A DNA stretch of 27,509 nt from an uncultured virus (IMG/VR IMGVR_UViG_3300022602_000035) (taxonomy: Duplodnaviria > Heunggongvirae > Uroviricota > Caudoviricetes), in the IMG/VR virus record IMGVR_UViG_3300022602_000035; one strand, written 5' to 3'. A program made the position numbers and the translations under genes. Shown here in pieces: positions 626 through 27,509 of the stretch. Numbering within the stretch: the stretch's first letter is position 1; every line of letters starts with the position of its first letter. The notes under the pieces are model-generated. The model did no database searches, had not been told where the DNA came from, and saw nothing but the letters and a program-made list of their open reading frames with translations.

Positions 626-1006
626 ATGAGGATCGCTACACTTGCACTATTAGTGTCATTGTCTGCAATGGCAGATGAACCAACTGAAATGTACATGCCA
701 AATGACAGTGGCGGGTACATTGTATTAACCCTAGAAGATTGTCGAGTTAAAACTTCAGATTATCCCTATAGGGCCTATGCTACAGAGTCAGAGTCAGGAC
801 CTGCGCTACATGAAGGCTGTTGGACTAGATTCACTGACCCAGAGTATGATAAATTTGCAGAAAGTATGGTTAGTACCTATTGGGGTCCAGGCCTAATGGC
901 CAGCTTTAGACAGAGGTTGTTTAGTCCTAATAAAGCACGTTGGACTGATGATAAGAACCCAATGACTATACGAGCACCAGAAGTGGTAGTAAAACCTAAT
1001 ACCTAG
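626..1006 (+). CDS. hypothetical exported protein with Sec signal peptide, 126 aa
   Basis: N-terminus MRIATLALLVSLSAMA|DE has a basic residue, hydrophobic core and A-x-A site; two Cys; SD GGAGG. Confidence 0.75.
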   Translation: MRIATLALLVSLSAMADEPTEMYMPNDSGGYIVLTLEDCRVKTSDYPYRAYATESESGPALHEGCWTRFTDPEYDKFAESMVSTYWGPGLMASFRQRLFSPNKARWTDDKNPMTIRAPEVVVKPNT

Positions 1007-1013
1007 ATAAGTA
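1006..1013 (+). promoter_or_regulatory. putative late-type promoter (GATAAGTA) for the tmRNA
   Basis: Variant of the ATAAATA box just upstream of the predicted tmRNA precursor 5' end. Confidence 0.4.
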
Positions 1014-1020
1014 TTGTATT

Positions 1021-1332
1021 AAAGAATTGTTGTATAAGCTCTAAAGTAATATCGTTGCGGACGCCGGTTCGACCCCGGCCACCTCCACTGAGGGCATTTG
1101 AAAAAGTGTCTTGAGTGGGGGTGTATTTGGTTTCGACGTGGCGGGATAGGATAAGGGTCAACACATCATGTGGATGTAAAACGCAAACTCAAGTAAATGC
1201 AAACGCAAATACTAAAGACGTAGTTAAAGTATCTATGGGTCGTGGCTTCCGCTTCGCTCGTGGTACCGAAGCTGTAGCAGCCTAAGAAACTGCAACGTCC
1301 GGGGTAGGACTTACCTTGTTACCAAAACAACC
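1021..1332 (+). ncRNA. ssrA: two-piece (circularly permuted) tmRNA
   Basis: T-arm GCCGG-TTCGACC-CCGGC (1063-1079) and acceptor 3' strand CACCTCC-A (1080-1087) lie upstream of the acceptor 5' strand GGGGGTG (1117-1123), which gives a G3:U70 pair. Also present: D-loop-like TATTTGGTTTCGAC; P2 pairing 1137-1143/1053-1059; PK1 (1163-1167/1173-1177 and 1169-1172/1182-1185); tag ORF 1199-1285 ending AVAA-TAA with the stop in a hairpin loop. Ends are approximate. Confidence 0.93.
1199..1285 (+). other. tmRNA tag reading frame ANANTKDVVKVSMGRGFRFARGTEAVAA*
   Basis: Resume codon GCA follows the upstream GTAAAT element 13 nt after PK1; C-terminal AA degron. Confidence 0.85.
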
Positions 1333-1355
1333 ACCCGCTTCGGCGGGTTTCTTCT
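1333..1355 (+). terminator. Rho-independent terminator with cUUCGg loop
   Basis: ACCCGC-TTCG-GCGGGT followed by TTCTTCT. Confidence 0.85.
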
Positions 1356-1376
1356 AATCTATTATGAAAGACTAAT

Positions 1377-2056: not shown

Positions 2057-2350
2057 ATGAAGTTAAACCCATTACACGATCGTGTAGTAGTCAAACGTGT
2101 CGACGCAGACACACAGTCAGCAGGTGGTATCTTTATCCCTGATAACGTAGCTCAAAAACCAGACCAAGGTATTGTATTAGCTGTAGGCGCAGGTCGCCGT
2201 ACAGAAGAAGGCACTGTATTACCTATGTCAGTGCAGGTCAATGACAAGGTATTATTTGGTCAAAACACTGGAGAACAGGTAAAGATCGAAGGTGAAGAGT
2301 TACTGGTATTAAAAGAATCAGAAATTTACGCAGTTATTGAGGAGAACTAA
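2057..2350 (+). CDS. groES: co-chaperonin GroES (Cpn10)
   Basis: PLHDRVVV, GGIFIPD mobile loop, AVGAG, V.DKVLF, GEELLVLKESEI. Confidence 0.97.
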   Translation: MKLNPLHDRVVVKRVDADTQSAGGIFIPDNVAQKPDQGIVLAVGAGRRTEEGTVLPMSVQVNDKVLFGQNTGEQVKIEGEELLVLKESEIYAVIEEN

Positions 2351-3970
<1,620 letters not shown>

Positions 3971-15407: not shown

Positions 15408-17300
15408 ATGTCAAAGAATATTCTATTATTTAATCCATCCTTTAGTGCCAACAACATGCACTTACCCTACTTTTGGGCCAGTGCTAAAACATATTACGAG
15501 CGCCAAGGCAAAGAACCTAACAAATATAATTGGGTCAATCCCCTATTCAATTTCTATAACAATATAGAAGAAATAAAACAGTTTATACAGGCCAATCCGC
15601 CAGCAGTGTTTGGCATTAGTTTATATGTTTGGAATCATACATCGTCTATGGCTATCGCAGCCTGGGTTAAAGAAAACTACCCTGACTGTGTAGTAATCAG
15701 CGGCGGCCCGCATCAATATTTTAAACACGAAACTTCTTGGTTCCAAGATCATCCTTTCTTAGATGCCAGTCTGGCGGGGGATGAATACGGAGAAATTACC
15801 ATATGTGATATCTTAGACAACTTAGATAACCTGTCTTGGAACAAAGTTCATGCTGTAGTTTATCCAAATAAAAATAGAAAATTAATACTACAAAGTAGTA
15901 AAACAGCAAACAAACGAACATTTTGGTGGGAGTACAGTGCGTATGCTGATCAGTTTACTTTACTACAAGAATATAAGCAGGCATTAGACCTATACAATGA
16001 TTCTTATCGAGCATTGGGCATATTAGAAACAACCAGAGGATGTCCGTATTCCTGTACATTCTGTGACTGGGGAGGTGGTACTGGTTCTAAGGTAATAGCC
16101 CGAGACATGAAGTATGTTCGACAGGATATCGAATATATTGCTCAACTTGAAGTCGATGGAATGTTTATCTGTGATGCAAACTTAGGCATACTTAAAGAAC
16201 GTGATGTTGCTGTGGTGCAACATATAGCAGATACCAAAAAGAAATATGATAAATTTTATGCTATACATCATGGTGGATACGCTAAAACTCCCAAAGCACT
16301 ACCTTATATTAAACAAATATTAGAAATAGAAGCACAACACTATCTAACACGCTCTCTTACATATAAATTAAGCATACAGACTCTGGATCAACCTACACTT
16401 AAGAATATCGATCGCACAGATGTGTCATTAGAACATTATCTAGAATTAAGCAGGTATCTACAAGATAACCACGGATATGATGCTTATGCTGAAATTATAT
16501 GCGGACTGCCAGGAATTACTCCTGACAAGTTTTATCACGAGATGGATGTGTTTAGTAGTAACAATATTACAATGAATTTTTATGAATGGTACCTACTGCC
16601 CGAAACACCATCATATACTAAAGAGTACAGACAGAAATATCAATTGGGCACTGTTAAAAAATTGTATGGTGTAGACGCAACAGATGAATATACTGCAGAA
16701 TTTGAGCGCGAATCGGAAATGGTAGTTACTACCTATAGTTATACCTATGAAGATTACAAAGAGATGCAGATCAGTTACGGACTGTACCGAGCCATATGGA
16801 CAGGTGGATTCTTAGATAAAACGCTAAAACAACTTAATATTCCATTGGGTGAATTTGTTAAATCTCTATATCGAGAATTTTTTACTAAAACATCAAATGA
16901 TTTTATAGTGTCGTTAAACAAAACTATCAATCAAACGTTTGATGACTTTAAGAATAAAAGTACTAAATTGTTATTTACAAATGATTATCTAGATAATGCT
17001 GATCCTATTAGACTAATTATGTTTACTATATTTTTAAAATTAGATCTATTTAAACATGATCTAACCAGCTGGGTATCTAATAGATATAACATAGATATTA
17101 CAGCTGATATTAACAGCACAATAACCTACAATAATTATAAAACTAAAAAAGGTTTTATATTAAAGACCTATTACTATCACGATATATTTGAAGATGCTGG
17201 TGATCTCAATGAAATAGTTTCTAAATTATCAGGTTACTTAAGTTCAAGTGTACCAGTACCCCCGTTGCATTTTCTACGTGCCAAAACAACTTTATTTTAA
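15408..17300 (+). CDS. cobalamin-binding radical SAM protein, 630 aa
   Basis: N-terminal B12-binding-type motifs (GISLYVWN, VISGGPH); ETTRGCPYSCTFCDW CxxxCxxC; DAN and GLPG motifs. Confidence 0.85.
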   Translation: MSKNILLFNPSFSANNMHLPYFWASAKTYYERQGKEPNKYNWVNPLFNFYNNIEEIKQFIQANPPAVFGISLYVWNHTSSMAIAAWVKENYPDCVVISGGPHQYFKHETSWFQDHPFLDASLAGDEYGEITICDILDNLDNLSWNKVHAVVYPNKNRKLILQSSKTANKRTFWWEYSAYADQFTLLQEYKQALDLYNDSYRALGILETTRGCPYSCTFCDWGGGTGSKVIARDMKYVRQDIEYIAQLEVDGMFICDANLGILKERDVAVVQHIADTKKKYDKFYAIHHGGYAKTPKALPYIKQILEIEAQHYLTRSLTYKLSIQTLDQPTLKNIDRTDVSLEHYLELSRYLQDNHGYDAYAEIICGLPGITPDKFYHEMDVFSSNNITMNFYEWYLLPETPSYTKEYRQKYQLGTVKKLYGVDATDEYTAEFERESEMVVTTYSYTYEDYKEMQISYGLYRAIWTGGFLDKTLKQLNIPLGEFVKSLYREFFTKTSNDFIVSLNKTINQTFDDFKNKSTKLLFTNDYLDNADPIRLIMFTIFLKLDLFKHDLTSWVSNRYNIDITADINSTITYNNYKTKKGFILKTYYYHDIFEDAGDLNEIVSKLSGYLSSSVPVPPLHFLRAKTTLF

Positions 17301-17308
17301 GGACCAAC

Positions 17309-18055
17309 ATGTATAATTATTCTGGCAGATTCTTTGCTTTTGGCTGTAGTTTTACTACTAATAATAGTCGTCCAACTTGGGCAGACATAGTCGGCGCTCA
17401 GTTTAGTGAATATCAAAATTGGGCTCGTGGTGGTAGTGGCAATCAATATATCTTTAACAGTCTAATAGAATGTAATCAACGCAATAAGTTTACCAAAGAT
17501 GACACAGCAATGATCATGTGGTCTAGTACTACCCGTGAAGATCGATATGTTAAACATCGTAATGGTTGGATCAGCAACGGCAATATCTATAGACAAAACA
17601 TCTATCCTGAAGATTGGGTTAAACAGTTTGCCTGTGAGCGTGGTTACCTAATTAGAGATCTTGCTGTGATAGCTGCCGCATGCGATTTACTACGGGCCTG
17701 GGGTGTTAACTATAAAATGATGTCAATGATGCCTATACACATGCTTGAAGCATTAGATGATGTTACACTCACAGAGAATCACGACGTAATTAACTTATAC
17801 AAACCTGCATTAGATGAAATTGCACCTAGTGTATATGAAGTAATATTTAACAGTGAAAATTGGCAAAATCGAAAATCGAATTTTGGAGCTTGGGTTGATG
17901 TTGGCATTAGAGATGCACATCCAGATCCCTTAGAAGCATTAGAATATGTTGAAAAAGTATTACCAGACCTTACAATTAAGCAAGAAACCATTGATTGGGT
18001 ACAGAATTTTAAATACGGCACAGAAATTCCTTTTGTTCCCGTTGCACGTTTATAA
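17309..18055 (+). CDS. SGNH/GDSL-hydrolase-like protein, 248 aa
   Basis: FGCSFT (block I), N.ARGGSGN (block II), D.HP (block V). Confidence 0.6.
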   Translation: MYNYSGRFFAFGCSFTTNNSRPTWADIVGAQFSEYQNWARGGSGNQYIFNSLIECNQRNKFTKDDTAMIMWSSTTREDRYVKHRNGWISNGNIYRQNIYPEDWVKQFACERGYLIRDLAVIAAACDLLRAWGVNYKMMSMMPIHMLEALDDVTLTENHDVINLYKPALDEIAPSVYEVIFNSENWQNRKSNFGAWVDVGIRDAHPDPLEALEYVEKVLPDLTIKQETIDWVQNFKYGTEIPFVPVARL

Positions 18056-18060
18056 TTTGG

Positions 18061-18089
18061 TTGACAACTTCATTAACAGAGTATATAAT
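18061..18089 (+). promoter_or_regulatory. sigma70 consensus promoter
   Basis: TTGACA-17 bp-TATAAT, perfect consensus. Confidence 0.9.
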
Positions 18090-18117
18090 ACACACATACT
18101 TTAGAAATAGGCAGATT

Positions 18118-19431
18118 ATGAATACACCTTGGTCAGTAATAGCGCAGTTAGAAGCAGATAATAGTCGTCTTGCAAAGGAAGAAATTGTTGCCCGTGAAGC
18201 GGCAGCAGGAAACTCAGAATTCTTTCAAGGTGCAGGTCTTGCTTTAGATGCTATGGTTACATTCGGTGTTAAACAAGTAGAACCTAAAACTGGTCCAGGA
18301 AAAGGACTTAGTTGGGCAGGTTTTAAACAACTTGCCGATGCACTATCATCACGTCAACTCACCGGCAATGCGGCACAGACCGCGGTAAACTATGCTCGTA
18401 TGACTGCTACAGAAGAACAATGGAATCTATGGTATCGTCGTATCTTAATCAAAGACCTACGCTGTGGCGTAAGTGAAAAAACAATCAACAAAGTAGTGGA
18501 GAAAAAGTATGATAAAAGTTATTCTATTCCTGTGTTTACTTGCCAACTTGCTCATGATTCTGCCAATCACGAGTCTAAAGTGGTCGGAGAGCGACTCATC
18601 GAAGTCAAACTTGATGGAGTTCGTGTCTTGGCTATTGTGTATCCAACTGGGACTGTTAGTCTTTTTAGCCGGAACGGTAAATCATTGGACAACTTTCCAT
18701 TGGTTGAACGTCAACTAGGCAAACACGCTATATTCTTCAGTGAGCCAGTGGTATTAGATGGCGAGATTATGTCAGCAAGTTTTCAAGACTTGATGAAACA
18801 GGTACATCGTAAAAGTGATGTAGAATCAACTGATGCTGTGCTTAATTTATTTGATGTTATTACTCTACATGAGTTCCAACTAGGACGTGGCGAACATCGT
18901 CAGGTTGATCGTAGTGTTAGTTTGTTAGCATGGTACAATCAATTTAAAGACCATATGCCTAATGTTACTGTGGTAGGTCAAGAACTTGTAGATTTATCAA
19001 CAGAAGAAGGTCAAAAACGCTTCAAACAGATCAATAGTGATGCCGTTGCAGGTGGATATGAAGGCATTATGATTAAAGATCCTAGTGCAGTATATGAGTG
19101 TAAGCGTAGCGTTAGTTGGCTAAAACTTAAACCATTTATTGAAGTTAGTTTGGAGGTAGTAGATGTCGAAGAAGGGACAGGTCGTAATGAGGGCCGCTTG
19201 GGGGCTTTGGTGTGTAGTGGCCAAGATGATGGCCGTACTATTACTGTTAACTGCGGTAGCGGGTTTACTGATAACGATCGCGGAGTATTTTGGGCCAGTC
19301 GTGACCAGTTGGTTGGGCAAGTAGTTGAAGTACGTGCTGATGATGTTACGCAAAATCAGGATGGTACTTACTCCTTACGCTTTCCTAGGTTCTTGCGTTT
19401 TAGAGGATTTGAAGTTGGCGAAAAATTATAG
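18118..19431 (+). CDS. ATP-dependent DNA ligase (start revised to ATG 18118)
   Basis: EVKLDGVR (motif I), LDGEI (III), FDVI (IIIa), EGIMIKD (IV), WLKLKP (V), OB domain GSGF and SLRFPRF. The TTG at 18061 is the promoter -35. Confidence 0.95.
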   Translation: MNTPWSVIAQLEADNSRLAKEEIVAREAAAGNSEFFQGAGLALDAMVTFGVKQVEPKTGPGKGLSWAGFKQLADALSSRQLTGNAAQTAVNYARMTATEEQWNLWYRRILIKDLRCGVSEKTINKVVEKKYDKSYSIPVFTCQLAHDSANHESKVVGERLIEVKLDGVRVLAIVYPTGTVSLFSRNGKSLDNFPLVERQLGKHAIFFSEPVVLDGEIMSASFQDLMKQVHRKSDVESTDAVLNLFDVITLHEFQLGRGEHRQVDRSVSLLAWYNQFKDHMPNVTVVGQELVDLSTEEGQKRFKQINSDAVAGGYEGIMIKDPSAVYECKRSVSWLKLKPFIEVSLEVVDVEEGTGRNEGRLGALVCSGQDDGRTITVNCGSGFTDNDRGVFWASRDQLVGQVVEVRADDVTQNQDGTYSLRFPRFLRFRGFEVGEKL

Positions 19432-19672
19432 GTTAGCTCAAGAAGCTGACAAAGATAAAGTCTACGGTGCTCTTAAGGAGTTTACCTGTAACCCTCGTCT
19501 ATGGCGTTCAAGTCCAGTTGGACGTGAATATTGCCACTTGACAGAAGAAGGCAGAGAAGTTATAGTAGACATGATGCAGGATATGTTACGCACCATTGAC
19601 GCATTGGAACGTAAGGCATTTGATCAACGTGCTAAAGAAATTGTGTTTGAAACACTGAAAGGTAAAGAATGA
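19415..19672 (+). CDS. hypothetical protein (likely TTG start at 19415)
   Basis: SD GAGGA 7 nt upstream; avoids a long overlap with the ligase; ATGA coupling to the next gene. Confidence 0.65.
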   Translation: MAKNYRLAQEADKDKVYGALKEFTCNPRLWRSSPVGREYCHLTEEGREVIVDMMQDMLRTIDALERKAFDQRAKEIVFETLKGKE

Positions 19673-19971
19673 CAGATCGAGTAACTTGTAAAGACTGTGT
19701 GCATAGTATCAGAGGACTTACCCTAAACGAACGTATCGGAAGTTGGTTCTTTGACCCGCCTGGAAAATTCTTAAAATGTCGTCGTACTATCGAAGAAACT
19801 GTAGAACATGACTATGTCACTGGCCGTGATGCTATTGAGCAAAAGATAAGGTATTGTAGCACTGCACGTAAATACGAGGATGAGTGCGGCCCGCAAGGTA
19901 TCCATTGGGTGCCCAAACATAAAAAAGATTTATTCAAACTAATGACAAGGATTGGCAATGAAACTGACTAA
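19669..19971 (+). CDS. hypothetical Cys-rich (possible metal-binding) protein, 100 aa
   Basis: CKDC...C...C...C; start overlaps the upstream stop. Confidence 0.7.
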   Translation: MTDRVTCKDCVHSIRGLTLNERIGSWFFDPPGKFLKCRRTIEETVEHDYVTGRDAIEQKIRYCSTARKYEDECGPQGIHWVPKHKKDLFKLMTRIGNETD

Positions 19972-20248
19972 AGAAGAACTTGTAGCGGCACTTAAAGCAC
20001 ATACATATAATGTTACATTTACCAAAGTAAATGGAGAAGTTCGTACTATGCCTTGTACACTCAACGAAGAAATTGTGCCTAAATATGAGCGCAAAACACC
20101 AGTTAAAGAAGCCACAGAAAAGGAAAAAGCAACACTAAGCGTTTGGTGTATTGACAAAAATGCTTGGCGCAGCTTCCGTGTAGACAGCGTGACTAACCTT
20201 GAATTGTTTACTGCTGATATTGGAAATATGCCCAAAGTAGCAGTATGA
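19958..20248 (+). CDS. WYL-like/Sm-like SH3 beta-barrel protein of T4-like phages
   Basis: VTFTKVNGEVRTMPCTL...VW..DK.AWRSFR; SD AAGGA before ATG 19958. Confidence 0.7.
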   Translation: MKLTKEELVAALKAHTYNVTFTKVNGEVRTMPCTLNEEIVPKYERKTPVKEATEKEKATLSVWCIDKNAWRSFRVDSVTNLELFTADIGNMPKVAV

Positions 20249-21258
20249 TCTATCAGATTAAACAAGGACAACTTGTTGAGTTTGATTCTGGGTATGTAGA
20301 ATATTTAATCAGCAACTACATACCTGATGATAGTATTGTAATACCTAATGCAGAACTTCCCTACGATATTGACTACTGTCAACTTGCTGAACTAATAAAT
20401 CCACACCCAGCTTCTACAATAATATTTGACTGCTCAGGCGATCCTATTGACGTAGAACACCGACTAGAACAGATAGCATCTGCAGGCTTTACTAAACCAT
20501 TTTATATACTGTCTGGCCTATTCAAGTACTATAAGAACCCAGCAATAGATTCACGTATACGATTCTTTCCATTTTGGTGTGTGTGGATGAGCAAACCCTA
20601 TGCTCCGCTGTTGTCTTTAGGTCCGCATACATTTAGTCATGCGACCAAGCAGTATACTGTAAGTTGCCTAAACGGTACCTATTGGAATCATAGAATACTT
20701 ACATATTTGTATCTGTCAGAACAACCTTACTTTAAAGATATCTTGTTTAGTTTTGGACTCAGACCTAGATTTGAAGATCTGGTCAATGAATGTACATTAA
20801 TGGTTGAGGAGCATGATAGATTTAGTAAACTTCCGCATCCCATTCAGTTAGAGAACGACACTGATCAAATCGATGTTACTGTAAATCACCCAGCATACAT
20901 CAATTCTTATATTAATCTAGTCACAGAAACTAATGTACGAGTAAGTACTCCTATGCTCAGTGAAAAATCATTTAAACCTATTGTAGCAGGACAATTGTTT
21001 GTGTTAATTGCTGCACCCGGTGCAGTACAATTTTTACAAGATATAGGCATTGATACGTTTGATGACATAATTGATCATAGCTATGACGCTGTAGTAGATC
21101 ACAGACTGCGTATTCGGCAGGCCATAGACCAAATCAGTCATTTGGTCAGTTTGGACCAAAAAGAATTGTATGATCGAATTAAACCCAGACTAGAACGTAA
21201 TTCGGAATATTTTAGATCGGAAGAATTTAGACAACAATTTTGGTTAAATTTCAGTTGA
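20245..21258 (+). CDS. hypothetical protein, possibly glycosyltransferase-like, 337 aa
   Basis: INLVTET...SEKSFKPI...G.DTFDDIIDHSYD; loosely resembles the C-terminal half of GT-B enzymes. Confidence 0.5.
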   Translation: MIYQIKQGQLVEFDSGYVEYLISNYIPDDSIVIPNAELPYDIDYCQLAELINPHPASTIIFDCSGDPIDVEHRLEQIASAGFTKPFYILSGLFKYYKNPAIDSRIRFFPFWCVWMSKPYAPLLSLGPHTFSHATKQYTVSCLNGTYWNHRILTYLYLSEQPYFKDILFSFGLRPRFEDLVNECTLMVEEHDRFSKLPHPIQLENDTDQIDVTVNHPAYINSYINLVTETNVRVSTPMLSEKSFKPIVAGQLFVLIAAPGAVQFLQDIGIDTFDDIIDHSYDAVVDHRLRIRQAIDQISHLVSLDQKELYDRIKPRLERNSEYFRSEEFRQQFWLNFS

Positions 21259-21283
21259 CAAGGTTGAAGTTTGAGTATATAAT
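21255..21283 (+). promoter_or_regulatory. sigma70 consensus promoter
   Basis: TTGACA-17 bp-TATAAT; the -35 overlaps the upstream TGA stop. Confidence 0.9.
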
Positions 21284-21342
21284 ATATGCTCATGCTTAGG
21301 AAAGCAGTAATACTTTTATTAATCGTTATGGAGAAGTAACAA

Positions 21343-21588
21343 ATGGCAAATTTAGCTAAAGTAACAAATCAAGTAGCATTCTTAGAAAAATACCTACGTG
21401 GTACAGGTAAAACATTAACAGCGGCTCAAGCCAAAGCTAACTACGGTATTGGTAATTTAGCAGCTCGTATGTCAGAATTCCGTAAATGTGGTTTGAATGT
21501 TAAGACTACTGTAAATACTACTGGTAAAACTGCTTACGCAGTTACATCGCGTGATGTTGACGGTAAGCGTTCACGTATTTTTTCTTAA
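21343..21588 (+). CDS. small winged helix-turn-helix DNA-binding protein, 81 aa
   Basis: LT.AQA...YGI.NLAARMSEFR..G.NV pattern; basic; strong SD. Confidence 0.7.
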   Translation: MANLAKVTNQVAFLEKYLRGTGKTLTAAQAKANYGIGNLAARMSEFRKCGLNVKTTVNTTGKTAYAVTSRDVDGKRSRIFS

Positions 21589-21611
21589 TCTAGTTAAGAA
21601 ATTGTAACCAT

Positions 21612-21638
21612 AAAAAAGCCGCATTACGCGGCTTTTTT
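21612..21638. terminator. bidirectional Rho-independent terminator
   Basis: AAAAAAGCCGC-ATTAC-GCGGCTTTTTT between convergent genes. Confidence 0.9.
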
Positions 21639-21639
21639 G

Positions 21640-22050
21640 TTATGTTCCTACTGCTCGAAGTGCTAGATAGGTTCTAGAATTTGGTCTAGTAAGATCAATT
21701 TGTACATATCCAGACAAATCAGGTTCAGTAACTTCTGCGATAGTTACTGTCATGTTATTAGCGGCAATGAACTCATCTGCTTCGGTCTTATTGTTAACAT
21801 CTTCCCATAACGGAATTTGCGTATATGCAGTGGTTTTATAACTGTCAAATAATTCGTTAGTTGGGAAATAATGATCAATAACCAAAGTTAGATCGTCATC
21901 TTCATTACCTTTAATCCAAGTCTGCACAGAAGCAGATTCAAGGGCATTGAAATTTGTAACTAACTGTCCTTCTGACCATGGATAAAGATCAAATGGCCAA
22001 ATTGTACTAATGTTAGGGCGTGTCATTGTTACTCTAATAGAAACAGCCAT
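21640..22050 (-). CDS. hypothetical protein, 136 aa (the only credible minus-strand gene)
   Basis: SD AAGGAG, late-like promoter upstream, terminator downstream, no competing + strand ORF. Confidence 0.8.
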   Translation of the reverse strand: MAVSIRVTMTRPNISTIWPFDLYPWSEGQLVTNFNALESASVQTWIKGNEDDDLTLVIDHYFPTNELFDSYKTTAYTQIPLWEDVNNKTEADEFIAANNMTVTIAEVTEPDLSGYVQIDLTRPNSRTYLALRAVGT

Positions 22051-22072
22051 ATAAAACTCCTTAATTTTATTG

Positions 22073-22080
22073 TATTTATC
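22073..22080 (-). promoter_or_regulatory. T4-late-like promoter (GATAAATA on the minus strand)
   Basis: TATTTATC on the + strand, 22 nt upstream of ATG 22050. Confidence 0.6.
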
Positions 22081-22089
22081 AATAATTGA

Positions 22090-22118
22090 TTGACTTTTAA
22101 CGATTTTGAATGTATAAT
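22090..22118 (+). promoter_or_regulatory. sigma70-type promoter
   Basis: TTGACT-17 bp-TATAAT. Confidence 0.85.
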
Positions 22119-22150
22119 ATGCATGTATTAAACAATAAAGAAAGCGAACA

Positions 22151-22729
22151 ATGACTACACGTTTATACGTAGGGCTTGGAGTAGCAATTTTTGTAGGTAA
22201 TATAATATATGCTCAATACGAAGATACCCGTATTAGTTCAATTGAAAATAATGTTGCTCAAATTGGCAGTGACATTAAAGAAATTAAAGAAGCTGTATTG
22301 GAACAACAACCAACAGCAATTAAATATAACGAAAAGGACATTGAGTGTCTGGCACGCAATGTCTACTATGAAGCAGGTGTAGAGCCGTTAATGGGCAAAT
22401 ACGCTGTGGCCAATGTAACTATTAACCGTGTTAAAAGCGGCTATTGGGGTCGACATGTATGTGATGTAGTCTATGCCAAAGATCAGTTTAGTTGGACACG
22501 AGAGAAAAAACGTGCTTGGGTCGAGTTAAAAGGTGAAGCATGGGCAACCAGTCGTGCAGTAGCAGAGTCTGCACTTAAACAACGTATTGCAGTTAAGCAA
22601 TTGAAACACGCATTATTTTATCATGCAGATTACGTAAATCCTACTTGGCGTGATAACAGCAAAAAAGTTTTAAAAGTAGGACAACATATTTTTTATACAC
22701 AGGCAAAAGGTAGCAATTTATCAATATGA
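22151..22729 (+). CDS. cell wall hydrolase, SleB/Hydrolase_2 family, with N-terminal membrane anchor
   Basis: CLARNVYYEA..E...G..AVA.V..NRV, QFSW, ALFYHADYV.P.W, GQHIFY. Confidence 0.9.
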   Translation: MTTRLYVGLGVAIFVGNIIYAQYEDTRISSIENNVAQIGSDIKEIKEAVLEQQPTAIKYNEKDIECLARNVYYEAGVEPLMGKYAVANVTINRVKSGYWGRHVCDVVYAKDQFSWTREKKRAWVELKGEAWATSRAVAESALKQRIAVKQLKHALFYHADYVNPTWRDNSKKVLKVGQHIFYTQAKGSNLSI

Positions 22730-23193
22730 AATATTTTAGTTACGGAATGAACACAAACCTAGGCAGTATGGCCATGCGTTGTCCTAAGGCACAGAGCCTA
22801 GGTGCCGCAGTATTACCACATTATGAATTTGAATTTAAATCATATGCTACTGTCTCGCCTAAAATGGATAGTGAAACGCACGGTGTTCTTTGGGAAATTA
22901 CAGAAGAATGCGAACGGGCTTTGGACCGACTAGAAGGTTATCCTGTTTATTATAGTAAAATTATTGTTTGGGTCGAGCATGATGGAGAAATAGTTCCATG
23001 TATGACCTACTTGATGTATCCAGAAGAAGAGCTCAACTATCCTAGTGACAGCTATGTTCGCATGCTAGAAGAAGGATACAGCCAACATGGCATCAGCACT
23101 GATCAAATCAACCAAGCATTAATGACTTTAGACTATAATGTTGAGTTGACTTCTCTATCAAATGATAGTAAACTATACACATATAACTACTAA
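22726..23193 (+). CDS. gamma-glutamylcyclotransferase (GGCT/AIG2)-like protein
   Basis: YFSYG.N.N, GVLWEI, LDRLEG.P..Y, PS..Y. Confidence 0.85.
   Translation: MKYFSYGMNTNLGSMAMRCPKAQSLGAAVLPHYEFEFKSYATVSPKMDSETHGVLWEITEECERALDRLEGYPVYYSKIIVWVEHDGEIVPCMTYLMYPEEELNYPSDSYVRMLEEGYSQHGISTDQINQALMTLDYNVELTSLSNDSKLYTYNY
23146..23174 (+). promoter_or_regulatory. sigma70-type promoter inside the 3' end of the GGCT gene
   Basis: TTGACT-17 bp-TAAACT. Confidence 0.65.
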
Positions 23194-23202
23194 AGGATTG
23201 TT

Positions 23203-23433
23203 ATGCCGTACGTAACTGTTGAAGAAGAAGTTTGGGTTGACCTAGATGACTTTGAAACTGAAGATCTAGTTGAAGAACTTACACGACGAAAAGGCACCAC
23301 CAGTGCTACTTGGACTGGTGCCAGTGGCAATGAGTTAGTTAGAGATATCTACATGGCCAAACACGTTCGTGGGCAACCATATGATCATCTAGTAGATGAA
23401 TTAATCAGCACAGTATTAGGGAAGGTAGTATAA
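23203..23433 (+). CDS. hypothetical acidic protein, 76 aa
   Basis: SD AAGGA; TAATG coupling to the next gene. Confidence 0.75.
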   Translation: MPYVTVEEEVWVDLDDFETEDLVEELTRRKGTTSATWTGASGNELVRDIYMAKHVRGQPYDHLVDELISTVLGKVV

Positions 23434-23711
23434 TGTCAGACGATAAAAAACCTAAAATTACCTTTGCACCTAGCTTTTTTGAAACTTTTGAAGGTACCCA
23501 AGAGGAACTCGATGAGCTAATTGCCCAGGTCACACAGGTCTTAGAAGAAAAAATAGCATCAGGTGAGTATGCTGATATTGAACGTACTATTGTTGGTGAG
23601 AAATCCAACATCGATTGGGACGAACTTGATGAACAAGTAGCAAAATTGTCAGACCAATATGGTGTTGATGACAATGGTTTTATTAAATTCCCGTTTCCAA
23701 CAATTCATTAA
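23433..23711 (+). CDS. hypothetical acidic protein, 92 aa
   Basis: Translationally coupled ORF. Confidence 0.75.
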   Translation: MSDDKKPKITFAPSFFETFEGTQEELDELIAQVTQVLEEKIASGEYADIERTIVGEKSNIDWDELDEQVAKLSDQYGVDDNGFIKFPFPTIH

Positions 23712-23720
23712 GGAACTCAT

Positions 23721-24440
23721 ATGGCCACTAAGAAACAAAAAGAAGAGTTAATGCAGACACTTAAATTCACACCACGTGAATATAAAATTGAAATTGGCGC
23801 CTATGGTGGTGAAATTTACTTTGGTACAGTCGACCGTAAAATTTACGAATTCTTTAAAGAAAAGAAAATTGACATTGAACAATGGGCCAGTGACTGGGAT
23901 GACGATAAGTGGTCCGATGTTCCAAGTGAAATGCGTCCGTTCGAGCCAGGTAGTGCTTATGACTGCGATAATCTAGCACATTGTAGTGGAGCAACATTCG
24001 ACAGTGGCAATACCATCACTGTTTATGATGAAAATGGTGACGAAGTTTGGAGTTGTGAGTTAGATGCTGAGACACTAGAAGCTGAAGGTGTTGTTGTTGA
24101 AAATACTGAAGAAGTGTTTATCAACGAACAGCCAGAAGGCACTGTAATATTCTACGGCGCACAAGGTGAAAAGGGTCTATTGTTTGGCAATGACTTTCCG
24201 TTAAAAGCACCATTTGATCCTAAGAAACTTACAATTAACTATGGTGACTTTGATGGTTGGGAAATGGTTACTAATGTCTTGTATGATGGTGAAGACATCG
24301 ACAACTACAACCTAGACACCACAGGCAAGTGGGGCGAAGCCAAATGGGTTATTGTTGGCGATGAAGAAGTCTACGAAGGTGAATATCGCGATGATGTTGA
24401 TAGCGATGAAGACGAGGAAAGCGAAGAGGACGACGAATAA
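23721..24440 (+). CDS. hypothetical highly acidic protein, 239 aa
   Basis: About 64 Asp/Glu by hand count; poly-acidic C-terminal tail; SD AAGGA. Confidence 0.8.
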   Translation: MATKKQKEELMQTLKFTPREYKIEIGAYGGEIYFGTVDRKIYEFFKEKKIDIEQWASDWDDDKWSDVPSEMRPFEPGSAYDCDNLAHCSGATFDSGNTITVYDENGDEVWSCELDAETLEAEGVVVENTEEVFINEQPEGTVIFYGAQGEKGLLFGNDFPLKAPFDPKKLTINYGDFDGWEMVTNVLYDGEDIDNYNLDTTGKWGEAKWVIVGDEEVYEGEYRDDVDSDEDEESEEDDE

Positions 24441-24850
24441 TGTCAGTCTACGTACCTAGTCAGGGTAATTACGGCAATATAACTATTAGTAATCCAGGCG
24501 CCGTAACTGGAGTAGGAGCAAGCACAAATATTATCAGTATCACCAATGGTGGTAGTGGTTATCCGAGTAGCAGTGTGCTAACCGCCACTGGCGCAGGCAC
24601 TACTACTTGGGCCAATAACACTAATACTAAAACTACCGCACGAGGCAAGTTACATTTAGAAGGTGACGATGCCGACATTGTTATGAATGGTGTTAGCCTT
24701 AAAGATCTATTAAATGGTATCACTGATCGTTTGAGTATATTACAGCCCAAACCGGAACTGCTTGAGAAGTATGATAATCTAAGACAGGCCTATGAGCATT
24801 ACAAGACACTAGAAGCATTGTTACACCAAGAGGATGACAATGCAAAATAG
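24440..24850 (+). CDS. hypothetical protein, 136 aa
   Basis: TAATG coupling; low-complexity N-half and helical C-half. Confidence 0.75.
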   Translation: MSVYVPSQGNYGNITISNPGAVTGVGASTNIISITNGGSGYPSSSVLTATGAGTTTWANNTNTKTTARGKLHLEGDDADIVMNGVSLKDLLNGITDRLSILQPKPELLEKYDNLRQAYEHYKTLEALLHQEDDNAK

Positions 24851-25016
24851 GTTGGACATACATGACTTGGAAAAAGCTATGAGTTTAGGTCGCTGGTGTA
24901 GAGATAATTTAGACGAAAATTCGTGGAATATTGAATTACTAAACATGGTACCACCGCACTATAAATTTGAATTTTTAGACCCACATATGACCACCGTAGC
25001 GGCACTTAGCACTTGA
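24840..25016 (+). CDS. hypothetical protein (start 24840 or 24834)
   Basis: SD GAGGA; fills the gap up to the next promoter. Confidence 0.6.
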   Translation: MQNRLDIHDLEKAMSLGRWCRDNLDENSWNIELLNMVPPHYKFEFLDPHMTTVAALST

Positions 25017-25041
25017 CATTTCGATCAACATAATGTATAAT
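25013..25041 (+). promoter_or_regulatory. sigma70 consensus promoter, probably giving a leaderless mRNA
   Basis: TTGACA-17 bp-TATAAT; ATG at 25048. Confidence 0.9.
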
Positions 25042-25047
25042 GATTAA

Positions 25048-25188
25048 ATGAAAAATACAAAAAAGATCAAAATGAAGATACGCAGACATCAAGCACTATT
25101 TGATAGTGCTTTGCCATTTAAACCGCGTGTAGAACGTGACCGTACTAAGTATACACGTAAACAAAAACATCGTAAGGATCAAGAATGA
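25048..25188 (+). CDS. small basic ArfA-like (alternative ribosome-rescue factor-like) protein, 46 aa, absent from the ORF track
   Basis: MKNTKKIKMKIRRHQALFDSALPFKPRVERDRTKYTRKQKHRKDQE; AL...F..RVE...Y.RK.KH pattern as in ArfA; ATGA overlap with the next ORF. Confidence 0.6.
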   Translation: MKNTKKIKMKIRRHQALFDSALPFKPRVERDRTKYTRKQKHRKDQE

Positions 25189-25316
25189 ATTTGACCAGGC
25201 AAGAAGTTTTAGAGATTGCTAAACGGTATAATATGGAATACGTACACGAAACATTCCTTATGCGTTTCGTTGAAGAAATAATTGCCGCTGAAAAGGCAAA
25301 GAATGCCGCAGTATAA
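25185..25316 (+). CDS. hypothetical protein, 43 aa, absent from the ORF track
   Basis: MNLTRQEVLEIAKRYNMEYVHETFLMRFVEEIIAAEKAKNAAV; SD AAGGA; coupled on both sides. Confidence 0.65.
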   Translation: MNLTRQEVLEIAKRYNMEYVHETFLMRFVEEIIAAEKAKNAAV

Positions 25317-25686
25317 TCTAGAAGAGGATATCCGTAATAATCCGGAGATTCTTGCTAAAGTACGTGAACGTGCCAATTATGCACAGAACTTGTATGCGGC
25401 TATGTGTAACATGCGCTGGCAAAAGACAGAAACATTTCCTATTCTAAAGAATGATTTATGGTCGGTTACTTGGCGTAGTGCCGGTGGTGTTATAGCAGAT
25501 CTACGTGGCGAGGGTGATTACTTGGATTGGTACTGTAGTGGGATGGGTGGCGGAATAGGCTACGACACCGAAGAAGACATCCGCCATATGGAACGATATG
25601 GCTTTGTACCAGAAGCCACAGTAACAGAAGAGATACTGCACGATATGAAAAGTTTAGGATGGCACCCTGTGCCTTGGGAAGATTAA
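25303..25686 (+). CDS. hypothetical protein (start revised to ATG 25303)
   Basis: YAQNLYAAMCN...WRSAGG.IAD...DYLDWYCSG. Confidence 0.75.
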   Translation: MPQYNLEEDIRNNPEILAKVRERANYAQNLYAAMCNMRWQKTETFPILKNDLWSVTWRSAGGVIADLRGEGDYLDWYCSGMGGGIGYDTEEDIRHMERYGFVPEATVTEEILHDMKSLGWHPVPWED

Positions 25687-25687
25687 T

Positions 25688-25879
25688 ATGAAAAACGGCA
25701 TTGGCATTTATAGACGTACTGTGGTTAGAAACAAATTAGTTAATGTACCAGACAAATTTAAACCCGTGCTAAGAACACAGCGTGGTACAGAAATTTACTA
25801 CCGCTGGACATGGTGGGGTATTTTTGATCGCAGGTTAAAAACAGTCTGGCATCCAGGCTATAAAGATTGGGAGTTTTAA
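25688..25879 (+). CDS. hypothetical basic protein, 63 aa
   Basis: Tightly packed between neighbours. Confidence 0.65.
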   Translation: MKNGIGIYRRTVVRNKLVNVPDKFKPVLRTQRGTEIYYRWTWWGIFDRRLKTVWHPGYKDWEF

Positions 25880-26719
25880 ATGAGAAATTATTGGACATGT
25901 AGTAAGTTTGCCGATTGGCTACGTGGCACAGCAAAACTTAATAGCGGTACAAGTGAAGAATGGAGTGCTTGGCGTAAACAGGCTAAATCTGCACACCCAT
26001 TCCGTTGGTGGCTAACTGAAGAAGCACTAAGCCAATTAGACGATGCTTGGAACTATGTTCCTAGTAAGATTAACAGTGTACGCTACTACTTAAACAATCG
26101 TTACGAAGCAAAAACACACGCACTGTCAAGTAATCTAAAGAAAGGGCAATGGCATGAGTTCGAAGAACGCTTGCTACACTGCTCATTTGACAGTTTTGTG
26201 GACTTCATTGAAATCGAAACTGCTTGGAGCCACTGTATGTGGAACGAAAAAGATTGTGCAGACTTCAATGTACCGTGGTGGAGACGTCATTGGTGGACTC
26301 GTTGGTTTTTAACATGGCGTTGCCCAGAAGCAGGTGTTGCTCACTTAGAGTGGGAAATGACACTTAAGTTCAACGACGAATGGGTTAAGAAGTCAGATCC
26401 AAACTATGACAAACCTACACCGCAAGCAGAAGCCGCTAAAGAAAAATGGGCATTATACTACTGGTGGAAATATGTTCGTCCGCACCGTGCCGATGTACAT
26501 GATTACTGTGGCTGGACTGCATACTGCGATGATCTTAGAAAAGCTGCAGAAGCCAAGGGTGAAGAATCAGATTGGATCTTTGCTAAATCTGATAAGAAAG
26601 ATAAAAAACGTAGCAAAGAACTATTAGACAAGATGCAGAAGTTAGAAGAGCAGTACGACAATGAAGATGAAGAAATGTTAATTCGTTTAATTAAGTTGAG
26701 GAAATCATTATGGACGTAA
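25880..26719 (+). CDS. hypothetical Trp-rich protein, 279 aa
   Basis: SD GGAG; long ORF. Confidence 0.8.
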   Translation: MRNYWTCSKFADWLRGTAKLNSGTSEEWSAWRKQAKSAHPFRWWLTEEALSQLDDAWNYVPSKINSVRYYLNNRYEAKTHALSSNLKKGQWHEFEERLLHCSFDSFVDFIEIETAWSHCMWNEKDCADFNVPWWRRHWWTRWFLTWRCPEAGVAHLEWEMTLKFNDEWVKKSDPNYDKPTPQAEAAKEKWALYYWWKYVRPHRADVHDYCGWTAYCDDLRKAAEAKGEESDWIFAKSDKKDKKRSKELLDKMQKLEEQYDNEDEEMLIRLIKLRKSLWT

Positions 26720-27021
26720 TCATTGCTATTTGGAATTTTTATTCTACTATTAGTGTAATCTTTACCACATGGATGCTGTTTAATATCATTCGTGCTTATA
26801 AGATAATGAAAAGTGAAGATAAAGCCAAGCCAAAAGAAAATAAGTCTACAAAATTAGTGTATATTGACACTGTTAATGTGGACTTAGTTATGATGTACGA
26901 TCGTGCTACACGTAGTTTTATTGCACAGGCCAATTCGATTGAAGATCTTTGGAAATTAGTTGAAGAACGCTATCCAAACACTAACTTTGTATTAACAGAT
27001 GTTGACAAAACAACAAAATGA
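26710..27021 (+). CDS. hypothetical membrane-anchored protein, 103 aa
   Basis: Hydrophobic N-terminal segment followed by a Lys-rich linker; SD GAGG. Confidence 0.7.
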   Translation: MDVIIAIWNFYSTISVIFTTWMLFNIIRAYKIMKSEDKAKPKENKSTKLVYIDTVNVDLVMMYDRATRSFIAQANSIEDLWKLVEERYPNTNFVLTDVDKTTK

Positions 27022-27030
27022 TTATATACT
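27002..27030 (+). promoter_or_regulatory. sigma70-type promoter
   Basis: TTGACA-17 bp-TATACT. Confidence 0.85.
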
Positions 27031-27058
27031 GCACACATATCATAGTTAGGAGTATTAT

Positions 27059-27472
27059 ATGAGTATGCACATGTTACCGCCTATGTATTCAACTACGGGC
27101 AAGAAAAAAGGCAAAGCTAAGTTTAGAAATGCTGATGCGGCTAATAAAGCACGCCGTAATGCAGAAAGTTGGAACGAAATCTTGGAGAAGTATGATGCTA
27201 AAGTGGTGGTGGAAAAACCTAAGTCGGTTCGAGCAGGATCTAGTAAGAGTGTGGCTCCTTATAGGTCTGATTGGCGTAGCCGTGTTGACCCTAGCCGCCT
27301 TACTGATCATATACCAAGTCGTGACACAGGCCGTGGTGTAGCGGCAAAACCAGCCGACAAAGTCTACACAGGCGATGCTATGATTGGTATTGGCCAACTA
27401 CATAAGTCAAATGGTATTCCTGTATTCCGTCAAGAAGATGCCATTGATGTTAGTAAAATGAGGCGCGGATAA
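27059..27472 (+). CDS. hypothetical basic protein, 137 aa
   Basis: SD AGGAG; C-terminal YTG...GI...HKSN..PV motif that I associate with T4-like phage hypotheticals. Confidence 0.75.
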   Translation: MSMHMLPPMYSTTGKKKGKAKFRNADAANKARRNAESWNEILEKYDAKVVVEKPKSVRAGSSKSVAPYRSDWRSRVDPSRLTDHIPSRDTGRGVAAKPADKVYTGDAMIGIGQLHKSNGIPVFRQEDAIDVSKMRRG

Positions 27473-27473
27473 T

Positions 27474-27509
27474 ATGACCGTTATTGCGTGGGATGGTAAA
27501 ACATTGTCA
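27474..27509 (+). CDS. 5' end of a possible Ntn-hydrolase/proteasome-beta-like protein (MTVIAWDGKTLS...), truncated
   Basis: Only 12 codons visible; Thr2 followed by a hydrophobic beta-strand and DG. Confidence 0.35.
   Translation, partial: MTVIAWDGKTLS

Follow-up and report, generated by a model that had tools for sequence, protein, structure and literature searches.

Within a 27,509-nucleotide (nt) stretch of DNA from an uncultured virus of the Caudoviricetes (IMG/VR record IMGVR_UViG_3300022602_000035; the whole stretch is referred to here as the window), a 46-amino-acid (aa) open reading frame (ORF) directly behind a consensus promoter is a real gene under purifying selection, and its sequence relationships place it, together with its Pfam family of unassigned function, DUF7230, in the lineage of the bacterial back-up ribosome rescue factor ArfA. 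By analogy with ArfA, we consider it somewhat better than an even bet, at roughly 55%, that the gene encodes a divergent, 'pre-truncated' member of this lineage that would act as an early, constitutive and release-factor-dependent rescue factor. Phages with such genes would probably come with a means of their own to release ribosomes trapped on broken mRNA.

The translation of the ORF, MKNTKKIKMKIRRHQALFDSALPFKPRVERDRTKYTRKQKHRKDQE, is exactly that quoted in a preliminary description of the window, which had been made from the sequence alone. A search for homologous proteins returned 13 sequences that are 71-98% identical to it (forming the narrow alignment A1 of 14 close sequences), and a scan of viral contigs yielded 32 loci. 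Nucleotide differences from eight relatives of the same length fall mostly at third codon positions, with changes at positions 1, 2 and 3 numbering 5, 4 and 18 (L004), 8, 6 and 29 (L006) and 16, 11 and 32 (L013). The preliminary description had called the gene hidden, which overstates the case, as the family is in Pfam as DUF7230 (PF23876), which the ORF matches over residues 24-45 at 28.9 bits (E 1.3e-6; gathering cut-off 27). The identical 46-aa sequence is already present in protein collections, and its close relatives carry the label 'hypothetical protein'. The same family is matched by 21 of the 22 members of a more diverse alignment, A2, and the ORF additionally matches PHROGs 6310, 2701 and 18092, all of unknown function. 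An exhaustive HMMER search with A2 extended the family to 233 representative clusters (E<=1e-3), of which 14 reach E<=1e-10, and most of the 150 representatives listed are 38-60 aa long. The clusters derive mostly from viral or metagenomic DNA, and a mainly viral distribution fits the finding that DUF7230 matches 2 of 401 Pseudomonadota genomes, compared with 37 of 401 for ArfA. Among 50,697 phage records, a blastn search with positions 24400-26000 gave no match, and a tblastn search of phages with the ORF gave only 18-residue motif matches in PA5oct-like phages (E 0.1).

Several comparisons indicate that the likeness of the ORF to ArfA is homology and not a product of lysine and arginine bias. 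BLASTP against Escherichia coli ArfA (NC_000913.3, where the ArfA stretch quoted in the preliminary description proves to match the real protein) aligned Q15-H41 with E17-H45 at 12/30 identities and a pairwise E of 0.001. In the other direction, the DUF7230 hidden Markov model (HMM), run over all six frames of the E. coli K-12 chromosome, gave a single candidate, which lies inside arfA (12.6 bits, E 0.96), and the ArfA protein itself scores 13.1 bits on this model. When the A2 profile was compared with 177,635 distinct PDB sequences at E<=10, all six sequences returned were ArfA (E 0.021-0.062), with query residues 14-44 aligned to ArfA 17-50. Profile-profile alignment by hhalign gave a probability of 65.8% against 12 enterobacterial ArfA sequences and of 81.6% (P 1.1e-5, score 30.1) against 30 diverse ones, drawn from the 37 genomes with ArfA mentioned above. 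In control alignments, 299 of 300 column shuffles of A2 scored 19.7 or less and the reversed profile scored 9.1; the remaining shuffle, with a score of 133.5 over 14 columns at 21% identity, is regarded as a numerical artefact of hhalign. Composition can be excluded as the cause of the similarity because the shuffled-column controls score lower. Of the profile searches proposed as a check in the preliminary description, the comparisons of A2 with the PDB and by hhalign thus find ArfA beyond any lysine/arginine bias, and the Pfam ArfA model (PF03889) does not find the ORF.

Further support is provided by natural proteins that bridge the two families. The 51-aa protein ATN93434.1 of Pseudoalteromonas phage J2-1, annotated as ArfA by its depositors, combines a canonical ArfA N-terminus with the tail RVERDKTKYRRKKKH and lies above both Pfam cut-offs (ArfA 41.3 bits, DUF7230 28.6 bits), sharing 14/23 identities with the window ORF (E 2e-8) and 19/45 with E. 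coli ArfA (E 1e-10). Three representatives of the family, P0237, P0240 and P0262, likewise exceed both cut-offs (ArfA 46-48 bits, DUF7230 30-31 bits), bringing the total to four natural proteins. Among 30 representatives chosen by eye for ArfA-like N-termini from the 150 listed, six more match both families with ArfA below its cut-off, and one matches ArfA alone, also below cut-off. An enlarged alignment, A4 (97 sequences), gave an hhalign probability of 93.9% (E 1.7e-7) against ArfA, a figure that is not independent of the bridging proteins since A4 includes three of them. In the ESM Atlas, one of the 30 nearest clusters is an ArfA cluster (rank 25, score 0.91), which we treat as a lead only. 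An AlphaFold2 model built from A4 (mean predicted local distance difference test score 81.3, predicted template-modelling score 0.26) is extended apart from one short helix at residues 13-18; it found no PDB match by Foldseek or by a wide VIA-align search, as would be expected because the peptide is extended, and this outcome is uninformative either way. Judged from these sequence relationships, chance similarity of the ORF to ArfA is unlikely, the ArfA lineage includes DUF7230 as one of its branches, and the two Pfam families belong together. Since the ORF fails the PF03889 HMM and is without the KGKGS stretch of ArfA, we refer to it as an ArfA-related variant and not as a member of PF03889.

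In a joint MAFFT alignment of the ORF with 137 representatives of up to 70 aa and 29 ArfA sequences, the same columns are conserved in both groups. Position 24 is F in 86 and Y in 38 of the 137 representatives (124 together) and F in 28 of the 29 ArfA sequences; the corresponding counts are 108 and 21 for V28, 94 and 26 for E29, 122 and 26 for Y35, 134 and 29 for R37, 114 and 17 for K38, 131 and 23 for K40, and 125 and 20 for H41. The F-x-x-R-V-E and Y-x-R-K-x-K-H motifs, which the preliminary description had read in the ORF together with A-L, a missing KGKGS and a stop five codons after KH, are all as it described, and homologues conserve these two motifs as well. The systematic difference between the groups is the replacement of K-G-K-G-S in ArfA by T-K in DUF7230 (D-R-T-K in the ORF), a deletion of three residues. 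Within the N-terminal half, A16, L17, L22, P23 and F24 are invariant across the 14 close sequences of A1.

These columns can be placed on the ribosome by analogy with the structural account of ArfA (Demo et al. 2017, PMC5378476), which describes His21-Glu30 in the A site and residues 31-48 in the mRNA tunnel, with Lys44-Arg48 reaching its entry. A review reports that the contacts between the KH motif and the mRNA entry channel are conserved (PMC8012679). On this mapping, the A-site segment would be F24-E29 of the ORF and the tunnel segment R30-E46; K40-H41 would form the KH motif, within the Y-x-R-K-x-K-H of the basic tail, which is made up by Y35, R37, K38, K40 and H41. The same structural account reports that ArfA truncated at Asn47 is active and that a cut after Met40 inactivates it (PMC5378476); the ORF chain ends at the equivalent of about ArfA residue 50-52 and so should be long enough by these truncation data. 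It further describes contacts of Leu19, Leu24 and Phe25 with Trp319, Val198 and Phe217 of release factor 2 (RF2) and a position for Ala18 in the core of an N-terminal minidomain (PMC5378476). The A16-L17-F18 and L22-P23-F24 elements of the ORF plausibly correspond to these hydrophobic elements, in a register that shifts by 1-2 residues between aligners.

A second set of features concerns the control of expression. In E. coli, a stem-loop in arfA is reported to give a non-stop mRNA, and the last 17-18 residues of the full-length product are described as regulatory and hydrophobic (PMC8012679). The ORF has a normal in-frame stop five codons after KH and no hydrophobic tail, and its sole strong hairpin (8 bp, at 25092-25110) is placed mid-ORF and shows no conservation in 11 relatives. 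Short tails are usual in the family. Of the 150 listed representatives, 136 have the motif; their tails beyond KH have a median length of 7 residues, and in 102 of them the tail does not exceed 10. The normal stop, the loss of the tail and the lack of a conserved hairpin fit an escape from the non-stop, transfer-messenger RNA (tmRNA)-based control of E. coli arfA, as the preliminary description had supposed. A minority of DUF7230 members have longer tails, some of them hydrophobic like that of full-length ArfA (P0146, P0147, P0238, P0239 and EST35_0191 of phage PA5oct, L002:2941-3093), and these may still be under tail- or non-stop-based control. We also observed divergent bacterial ArfA frames (L134, L135, L140, L142, L143 and L145), several of which end in ...AA (LMAA, SKAA, RQAA, LLAA), resembling the end of the ssrA degradation tag.

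The window also encodes a permuted two-piece tmRNA, which was absent from the preliminary description. It is matched by Rfam models RF04321 (tmRNA_permuted; 112.7 bits at 1028-1285) and RF01850 (beta_tmRNA; 97.4 bits at 976-1242), and has a G-U pair at the third position of its acceptor stem; a terminator-like hairpin comes after it, near 1335-1355. Two-piece tmRNAs of aquatic phages have been described previously (PMC9004378). As predicted by these models, this RNA is a second ribosome rescue component of the same phage, and a phage that invests in rescue in this way speaks for a rescue role of the ArfA-related gene. The two genes lie 24 kb apart and are not physically linked; a search of the window revealed neither SmpB nor any further rescue protein. 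A permuted tmRNA occurs in two of five related contigs (G003 and G004), one of which has it at a distance of about 4.5 kb from its DUF7230 gene, and none was found in five cultured phages with ArfA or DUF7230 genes.

By analogy with ArfA, we infer ribosome binding, rescue activity and dependence on a release factor, most probably RF2, from which the phage would benefit. The basic C-terminal part of the peptide (approximately R30-E46) would thread into the empty mRNA entry tunnel of a 70S ribosome stalled at the 3' end of a broken mRNA, the F-x-x-(R/K)-V-E segment would occupy the vacant A site, and the A-L-F...L-P-F elements would engage a class-I release factor, which would hydrolyse the peptidyl-tRNA and return the ribosome to the pool available for phage translation. 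Given its normal stop codon, the peptide would accumulate without a failure of tmRNA, unlike E. coli ArfA.

A number of observations weigh against this proposal. PF03889 (gathering cut-off 25.5 bits) misses the ORF at E<=1 and all 22 members of A2 at E<=10, and it found nothing in six frames over five related phage records (0/5). The narrow A1 profile did not retrieve ArfA from the PDB, returning only dynactin (E~1.2), and NCBIfam gave no match to the ORF at E<=10. KGKGS is missing from the ORF and from all 150 representatives listed, leaving the tunnel segment three residues shorter, and the ORF is without the 'DNA' of the 'KDNA' stretch in the ArfA N-terminal minidomain; this absence, together with the shifting register of the A-L and L-P-F elements, makes engagement of RF2 uncertain. 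ArfA is described as known only from some beta- and gamma-proteobacteria (PMC8012679). Biochemical evidence on any DUF7230 member was not found in the literature searched.

The main rival, which we hold to be the less probable account by some way, is that the peptide has kept the tunnel tail of ArfA and lost the activation of the release factor, so that it acts as a channel plug or mimic. Such a plug could stand in the way of host SmpB-tmRNA, ArfA or ArfB, shut down host ribosomes or put them into hibernation, or skew the ribosome pool. It would account for the tail being the best conserved part (Y35, R37, K40 and H41 in 122-134 of 137) beside a far more variable N-terminal half, and for the loss of both the 'KDNA' stretch and KGKGS; the A18T mutation of ArfA, which is reported to separate binding from RF2 activation (PMC5378476), provides a precedent. 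However, the hydrophobic elements expected to touch RF2 have been kept, A16, L17, L22, P23 and F24 in the 14 close sequences and F/Y24 in 124 of 137, and a plug would work against the tmRNA of the same phage, which needs the same empty channel.

The proposal that the gene encodes a rescue factor made early and constitutively also draws on its expression signals. The perfect TTGACA-17-TATAAT promoter of the preliminary description and the ATGA overlap with the next gene are both where it had placed them (Table 1), and the window reads cacTTGACAtttcgatcaacataatgTATAATgattaaATG from 25010 onward. Only 6 nt (gattaa) separate the -10 hexamer from the ATG, so that the A of ATG is the seventh base after the hexamer, and no Shine-Dalgarno sequence is seen upstream of this ATG (M1) or of the internal M9. 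Perfect 12/12 promoter matches occur three times in the 10.5 kb from 17000 to 27509 (18061, 21255 and 25013), and a scan of the whole window adds five 11/12 sites (178, 15372, 19538, 22090 and 27002), all eight on the + strand; together they look like a class of phage early sigma-70 promoters. Many of them have a T-rich stretch right after the -35 hexamer. The promoter at 25013 is the only strong one in the window that abuts a start codon, the others having leaders of about 25-40 nt, several with a Shine-Dalgarno-like purine-rich run.

This arrangement recurs among 24 distinct related loci, which remained after eight loci with duplicate proteins had been dropped (L009, L012, L015, L019, L020, L023, L027 and L030). 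In 14 of the 24, an 11-12/12 sigma-70 promoter has its -10 hexamer ending 7-9 nt before the ATG, as the preliminary description's leaderless reading of the window locus would lead one to expect; a further three (L026, L028 and L035) combine an 11/12 promoter with a leader of 25-30 nt that contains a Shine-Dalgarno sequence, and in the remaining seven the best promoter match within 60 nt is 8/12 or less. In two of these seven (L033 and L034), the next gene encodes a T7-type single-subunit RNA polymerase (PF00940, 355 and 311 bits), a neighbourhood that in T7-like phages is the classical early region. The window mRNA begins with ~40 nt that are A-rich and unpaired in the minimum-free-energy fold, as in most of the 11 relatives folded, with weak long-range pairing in three (L006, L014 and L017). 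Promoter-abutting layout and early-region placement are conserved, and from the layout, the RNA polymerase neighbours and the unpaired 5' end, DUF7230 genes would typically be the first of an early transcript. Taking leaderless to mean a start within about 3 nt of the AUG and no Shine-Dalgarno sequence, the geometry of the window gene fits with respect to its predicted start, and in this lineage the gene is probably leaderless or nearly so. Host sigma-70 RNA polymerase would then fire at the consensus promoter immediately upon infection, and the transcript, beginning at the AUG or only a few bases away from it, would be translated as a leaderless mRNA.

An alternative, in which the downstream genes are what the promoter drives and translation of the ORF begins at M9 or relies on read-through transcripts, is unlikely in our assessment. 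Such an arrangement would explain two observations: most close relatives retain M9, and the database protein P0012 begins there. Against this, 13 of the 14 close sequences retain M1, the fourteenth being P0012 itself, and P0002 has L at position 9. The 14 loci with the promoter-abutting layout include a subgroup beginning MKPISF... (L018, L021 and L022) that has no internal Met before the conserved core, and the lack of a Shine-Dalgarno sequence before either ATG differs from the leader-bearing relatives, which have one.

Divergence from ArfA in the N-terminal half raises the further prospect, to which we give a low probability, of a changed partner, whereby the peptide would act in the manner of ArfA and recruit both release factor 1 and RF2, as ArfT does, or only the release factor of its freshwater host. 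ArfA and BrfA are reported to be adapted to the RF2 of their own species and ArfT to work with either factor (PMC8012679, PMC6299226), so that precedents are available; this would nevertheless be a sub-case of the rescue factor proposed here and not a true alternative to it. Finally, it is very improbable that the ORF is a small basic nucleic-acid-binding peptide whose convergent or chance likeness to ArfA has no link to rescue, a view that draws on the shortness of the motif, the modest E-values (0.02 in the PDB search and 0.96 in that of the E. coli genome) and the miss by the ArfA HMM, and that is opposed by bridging proteins joining a canonical ArfA N-terminus to a DUF7230 C-terminus above both cut-offs, by a PDB-wide search that retrieves ArfA alone and by shuffle controls that exclude composition.

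A more far-reaching version of the rescue-factor proposal, which we offer as speculation with the odds well against it, holds that DUF7230 proteins are constitutively active phage variants of ArfA in which tmRNA-based control has been replaced by self-limiting leaderless translation, and which form a two-tier rescue kit with a phage tmRNA. Leaderless mRNA would initiate on vacant 70S ribosomes, and excess peptide would stop its own synthesis because its tail binds those same ribosomes' empty mRNA channel. The peptide would be made within seconds of infection, here alongside the phage tmRNA. If true, such a kit would keep ribosomes available during the destruction of host mRNA and blunt defences that cut mRNA or tRNA.

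The window derives from a large (jumbo) freshwater phage. Its DNA occurs in 24 sequencing runs, all of them freshwater or lake DNA metagenomes, and the related contigs are 158-300 kb long at an estimated 45-81% completeness. Besides the genes discussed above it encodes GroES and GroEL, an ATP-dependent DNA ligase, an endolysin, a gamma-glutamyl cyclotransferase and virion proteins common to T4-like cyanophages; GroEL and one virion protein gave only distant matches, to a Vibrio jumbo phage and a cyanophage. The phage GroEL shows about 68% identity to enterobacterial GroEL and 60% to its counterpart in Vibrio jumbo phage 2.275.O. Beside the tail and virion genes, a 630-aa protein (15408-17300, +) shows weak radical S-adenosylmethionine and B12-binding matches below the Pfam cut-offs. 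Coordinates of the principal features are collected in Table 1.

Table 1. Positions of the ArfA-related gene, its expression signals and other features; numbering follows the window unless a related locus (L) is named.
Feature	Position	Strand	Remarks
-35 hexamer TTGACA	25013-25018	+	overlaps the TGA stop (25014-25016) of an upstream 60-aa ORF
-10 hexamer TATAAT	25036-25041	+	17-nt spacer after the -35 hexamer; 6 nt before the ATG
46-aa ArfA-related gene (Pfam DUF7230)	25048-25188, including TGA stop	+	based on translation, family match, homologues and codon-position pattern
Conserved core	25117-25170	+	codons 24-41, FKPRVERDRTKYTRKQKH; equivalent to ArfA F25-H45 less three residues of the KGKGS stretch; putative A-site and mRNA-tunnel segment by analogy, with the KH motif at its end
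Downstream 43-aa ORF	25185-25316	+	ATG overlaps the TGA at 25186-25188 (ATGA)
Permuted two-piece tmRNA gene	976-1376	+	ARAGORN 998-1376; tag ANANTKDVVKVSMGRGFRFARGTEAVAA
GroES (97 aa) and GroEL (538 aa)	2057-3970	+	
T7-type RNA polymerase genes directly downstream of the DUF7230 gene	L033:3074-5494; L034:1399-3822		T7-like viral contigs

The genes downstream of the ArfA-related gene vary between related loci. The 43-aa ORF that follows it in the window has no significant match in Pfam or PHROGs and is present in only four of the 24 loci, and an obligate partner gene was therefore rejected. A 127-aa protein (25303-25686, +) with a conserved AQNLYAAMCNM(R/Q)WQK stretch and no family match follows this 43-aa ORF in the window, and stands directly after the ArfA-like gene in L006, L007 and L008.

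What is new here is the link between DUF7230 and ArfA, phage genes annotated as ArfA being already in print. Our literature search, which was full-text for DUF7230 and did not cover supplements, found no paper on DUF7230 or on a phage ArfA without KGKGS, and the word 'phage' does not occur in an evolutionary survey (PMC6514570). The link provides a testable function for a family of at least 233 sequence clusters, almost all of 40-60 aa, and suggests that in many phages, among them jumbo phages, T7-like phages and cultured ones including PA5oct, Vibrio phage 2.275.O and J2-1, the earliest transcripts include a constitutive version of the bacterial back-up rescue factor. If this is true, ribosome rescue would join the host processes that phages supplement, help from a rescue factor against host mRNA decay or RNase-type defences would become testable, and structure-function work would gain a natural minimal ArfA that is free of KGKGS and of the regulatory tail.

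Among known systems, the closest is ArfA itself (PF03889; YhdL of E. coli), with which the ORF shares a small, basic product and the element order A-L-L, (P/L)-F, (R/K)-V-E, Y-x-R-K-x-K-H. Mature ArfA is reported to have 52 to 55 amino acids (PMC6299226), and the length of the ORF product agrees with that of truncated, active ArfA (active when cut at Asn47; PMC5378476). The ORF differs in having neither KGKGS (through the 3-residue deletion) nor 'KDNA', in falling below the PF03889 cut-off, in ending at a normal stop without a hydrophobic C-terminal extension, whereas ArfA is made from a hairpin-generated non-stop mRNA, and in being phage-borne behind a leaderless promoter layout. BrfA of Bacillus and ArfT of Francisella are comparable as small release-factor-dependent rescue factors with a basic tail in the mRNA channel, and BrfA is described as having a KH motif too (PMC8012679). 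No BrfA chain (PDB 6SZS, cited in PMC8012679) was retrieved from the PDB with A2 at E<=10, the only chains returned being ArfA. DUF7230 and the three PHROGs, to which the ORF belongs, are families without an assigned function.

Phage-encoded ArfA genes provide the nearest parallels, namely those of J2-1 (ATN93434.1), pelagiphage HTVC027P (gp30) and Citromicrobium phage RXM (g10). The phage proteins annotated as ArfA pass the ArfA HMM, in contrast to the window ORF. Gp30 is reported to be highly expressed both early and late (PMC12753301), and for gp30 (PMC12753301) and g10 (PMC8953757) the name ArfA is an annotation, with no functional test in these accounts. Within Pseudomonas phage pf16 (KU873925.1), we noted an unannotated 47-aa canonical ArfA ORF (L147:1495-1638, +; PF03889, 72.5 bits) whose first 36 nt overlap the opposite-strand gene pf16_199, and gp99c of Salmonella phage Arash (L148:1417-1641, +), labelled 'ribosomal protein L2', matches ArfA at 67.8 bits and contains KGKGSY. 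Unlike the window ORF, the pf16 and Arash proteins are canonical KGKGS forms of phage ArfA. The short ArfA proteins of J2-1 (51 aa) and pf16 (47 aa) resemble it in having a normal stop soon after the basic motif, and that of J2-1 has the same VERDKTKY-RK-KH tail. As regards expression, leaderless phage mRNAs such as lambda cI from PRM are comparable, in that the -10 hexamer is likewise some 7 nt away from the start codon and a Shine-Dalgarno sequence is missing. Compared with cI, the leaderless gene here would be the first of an early lytic operon, and it encodes a predicted translation factor.

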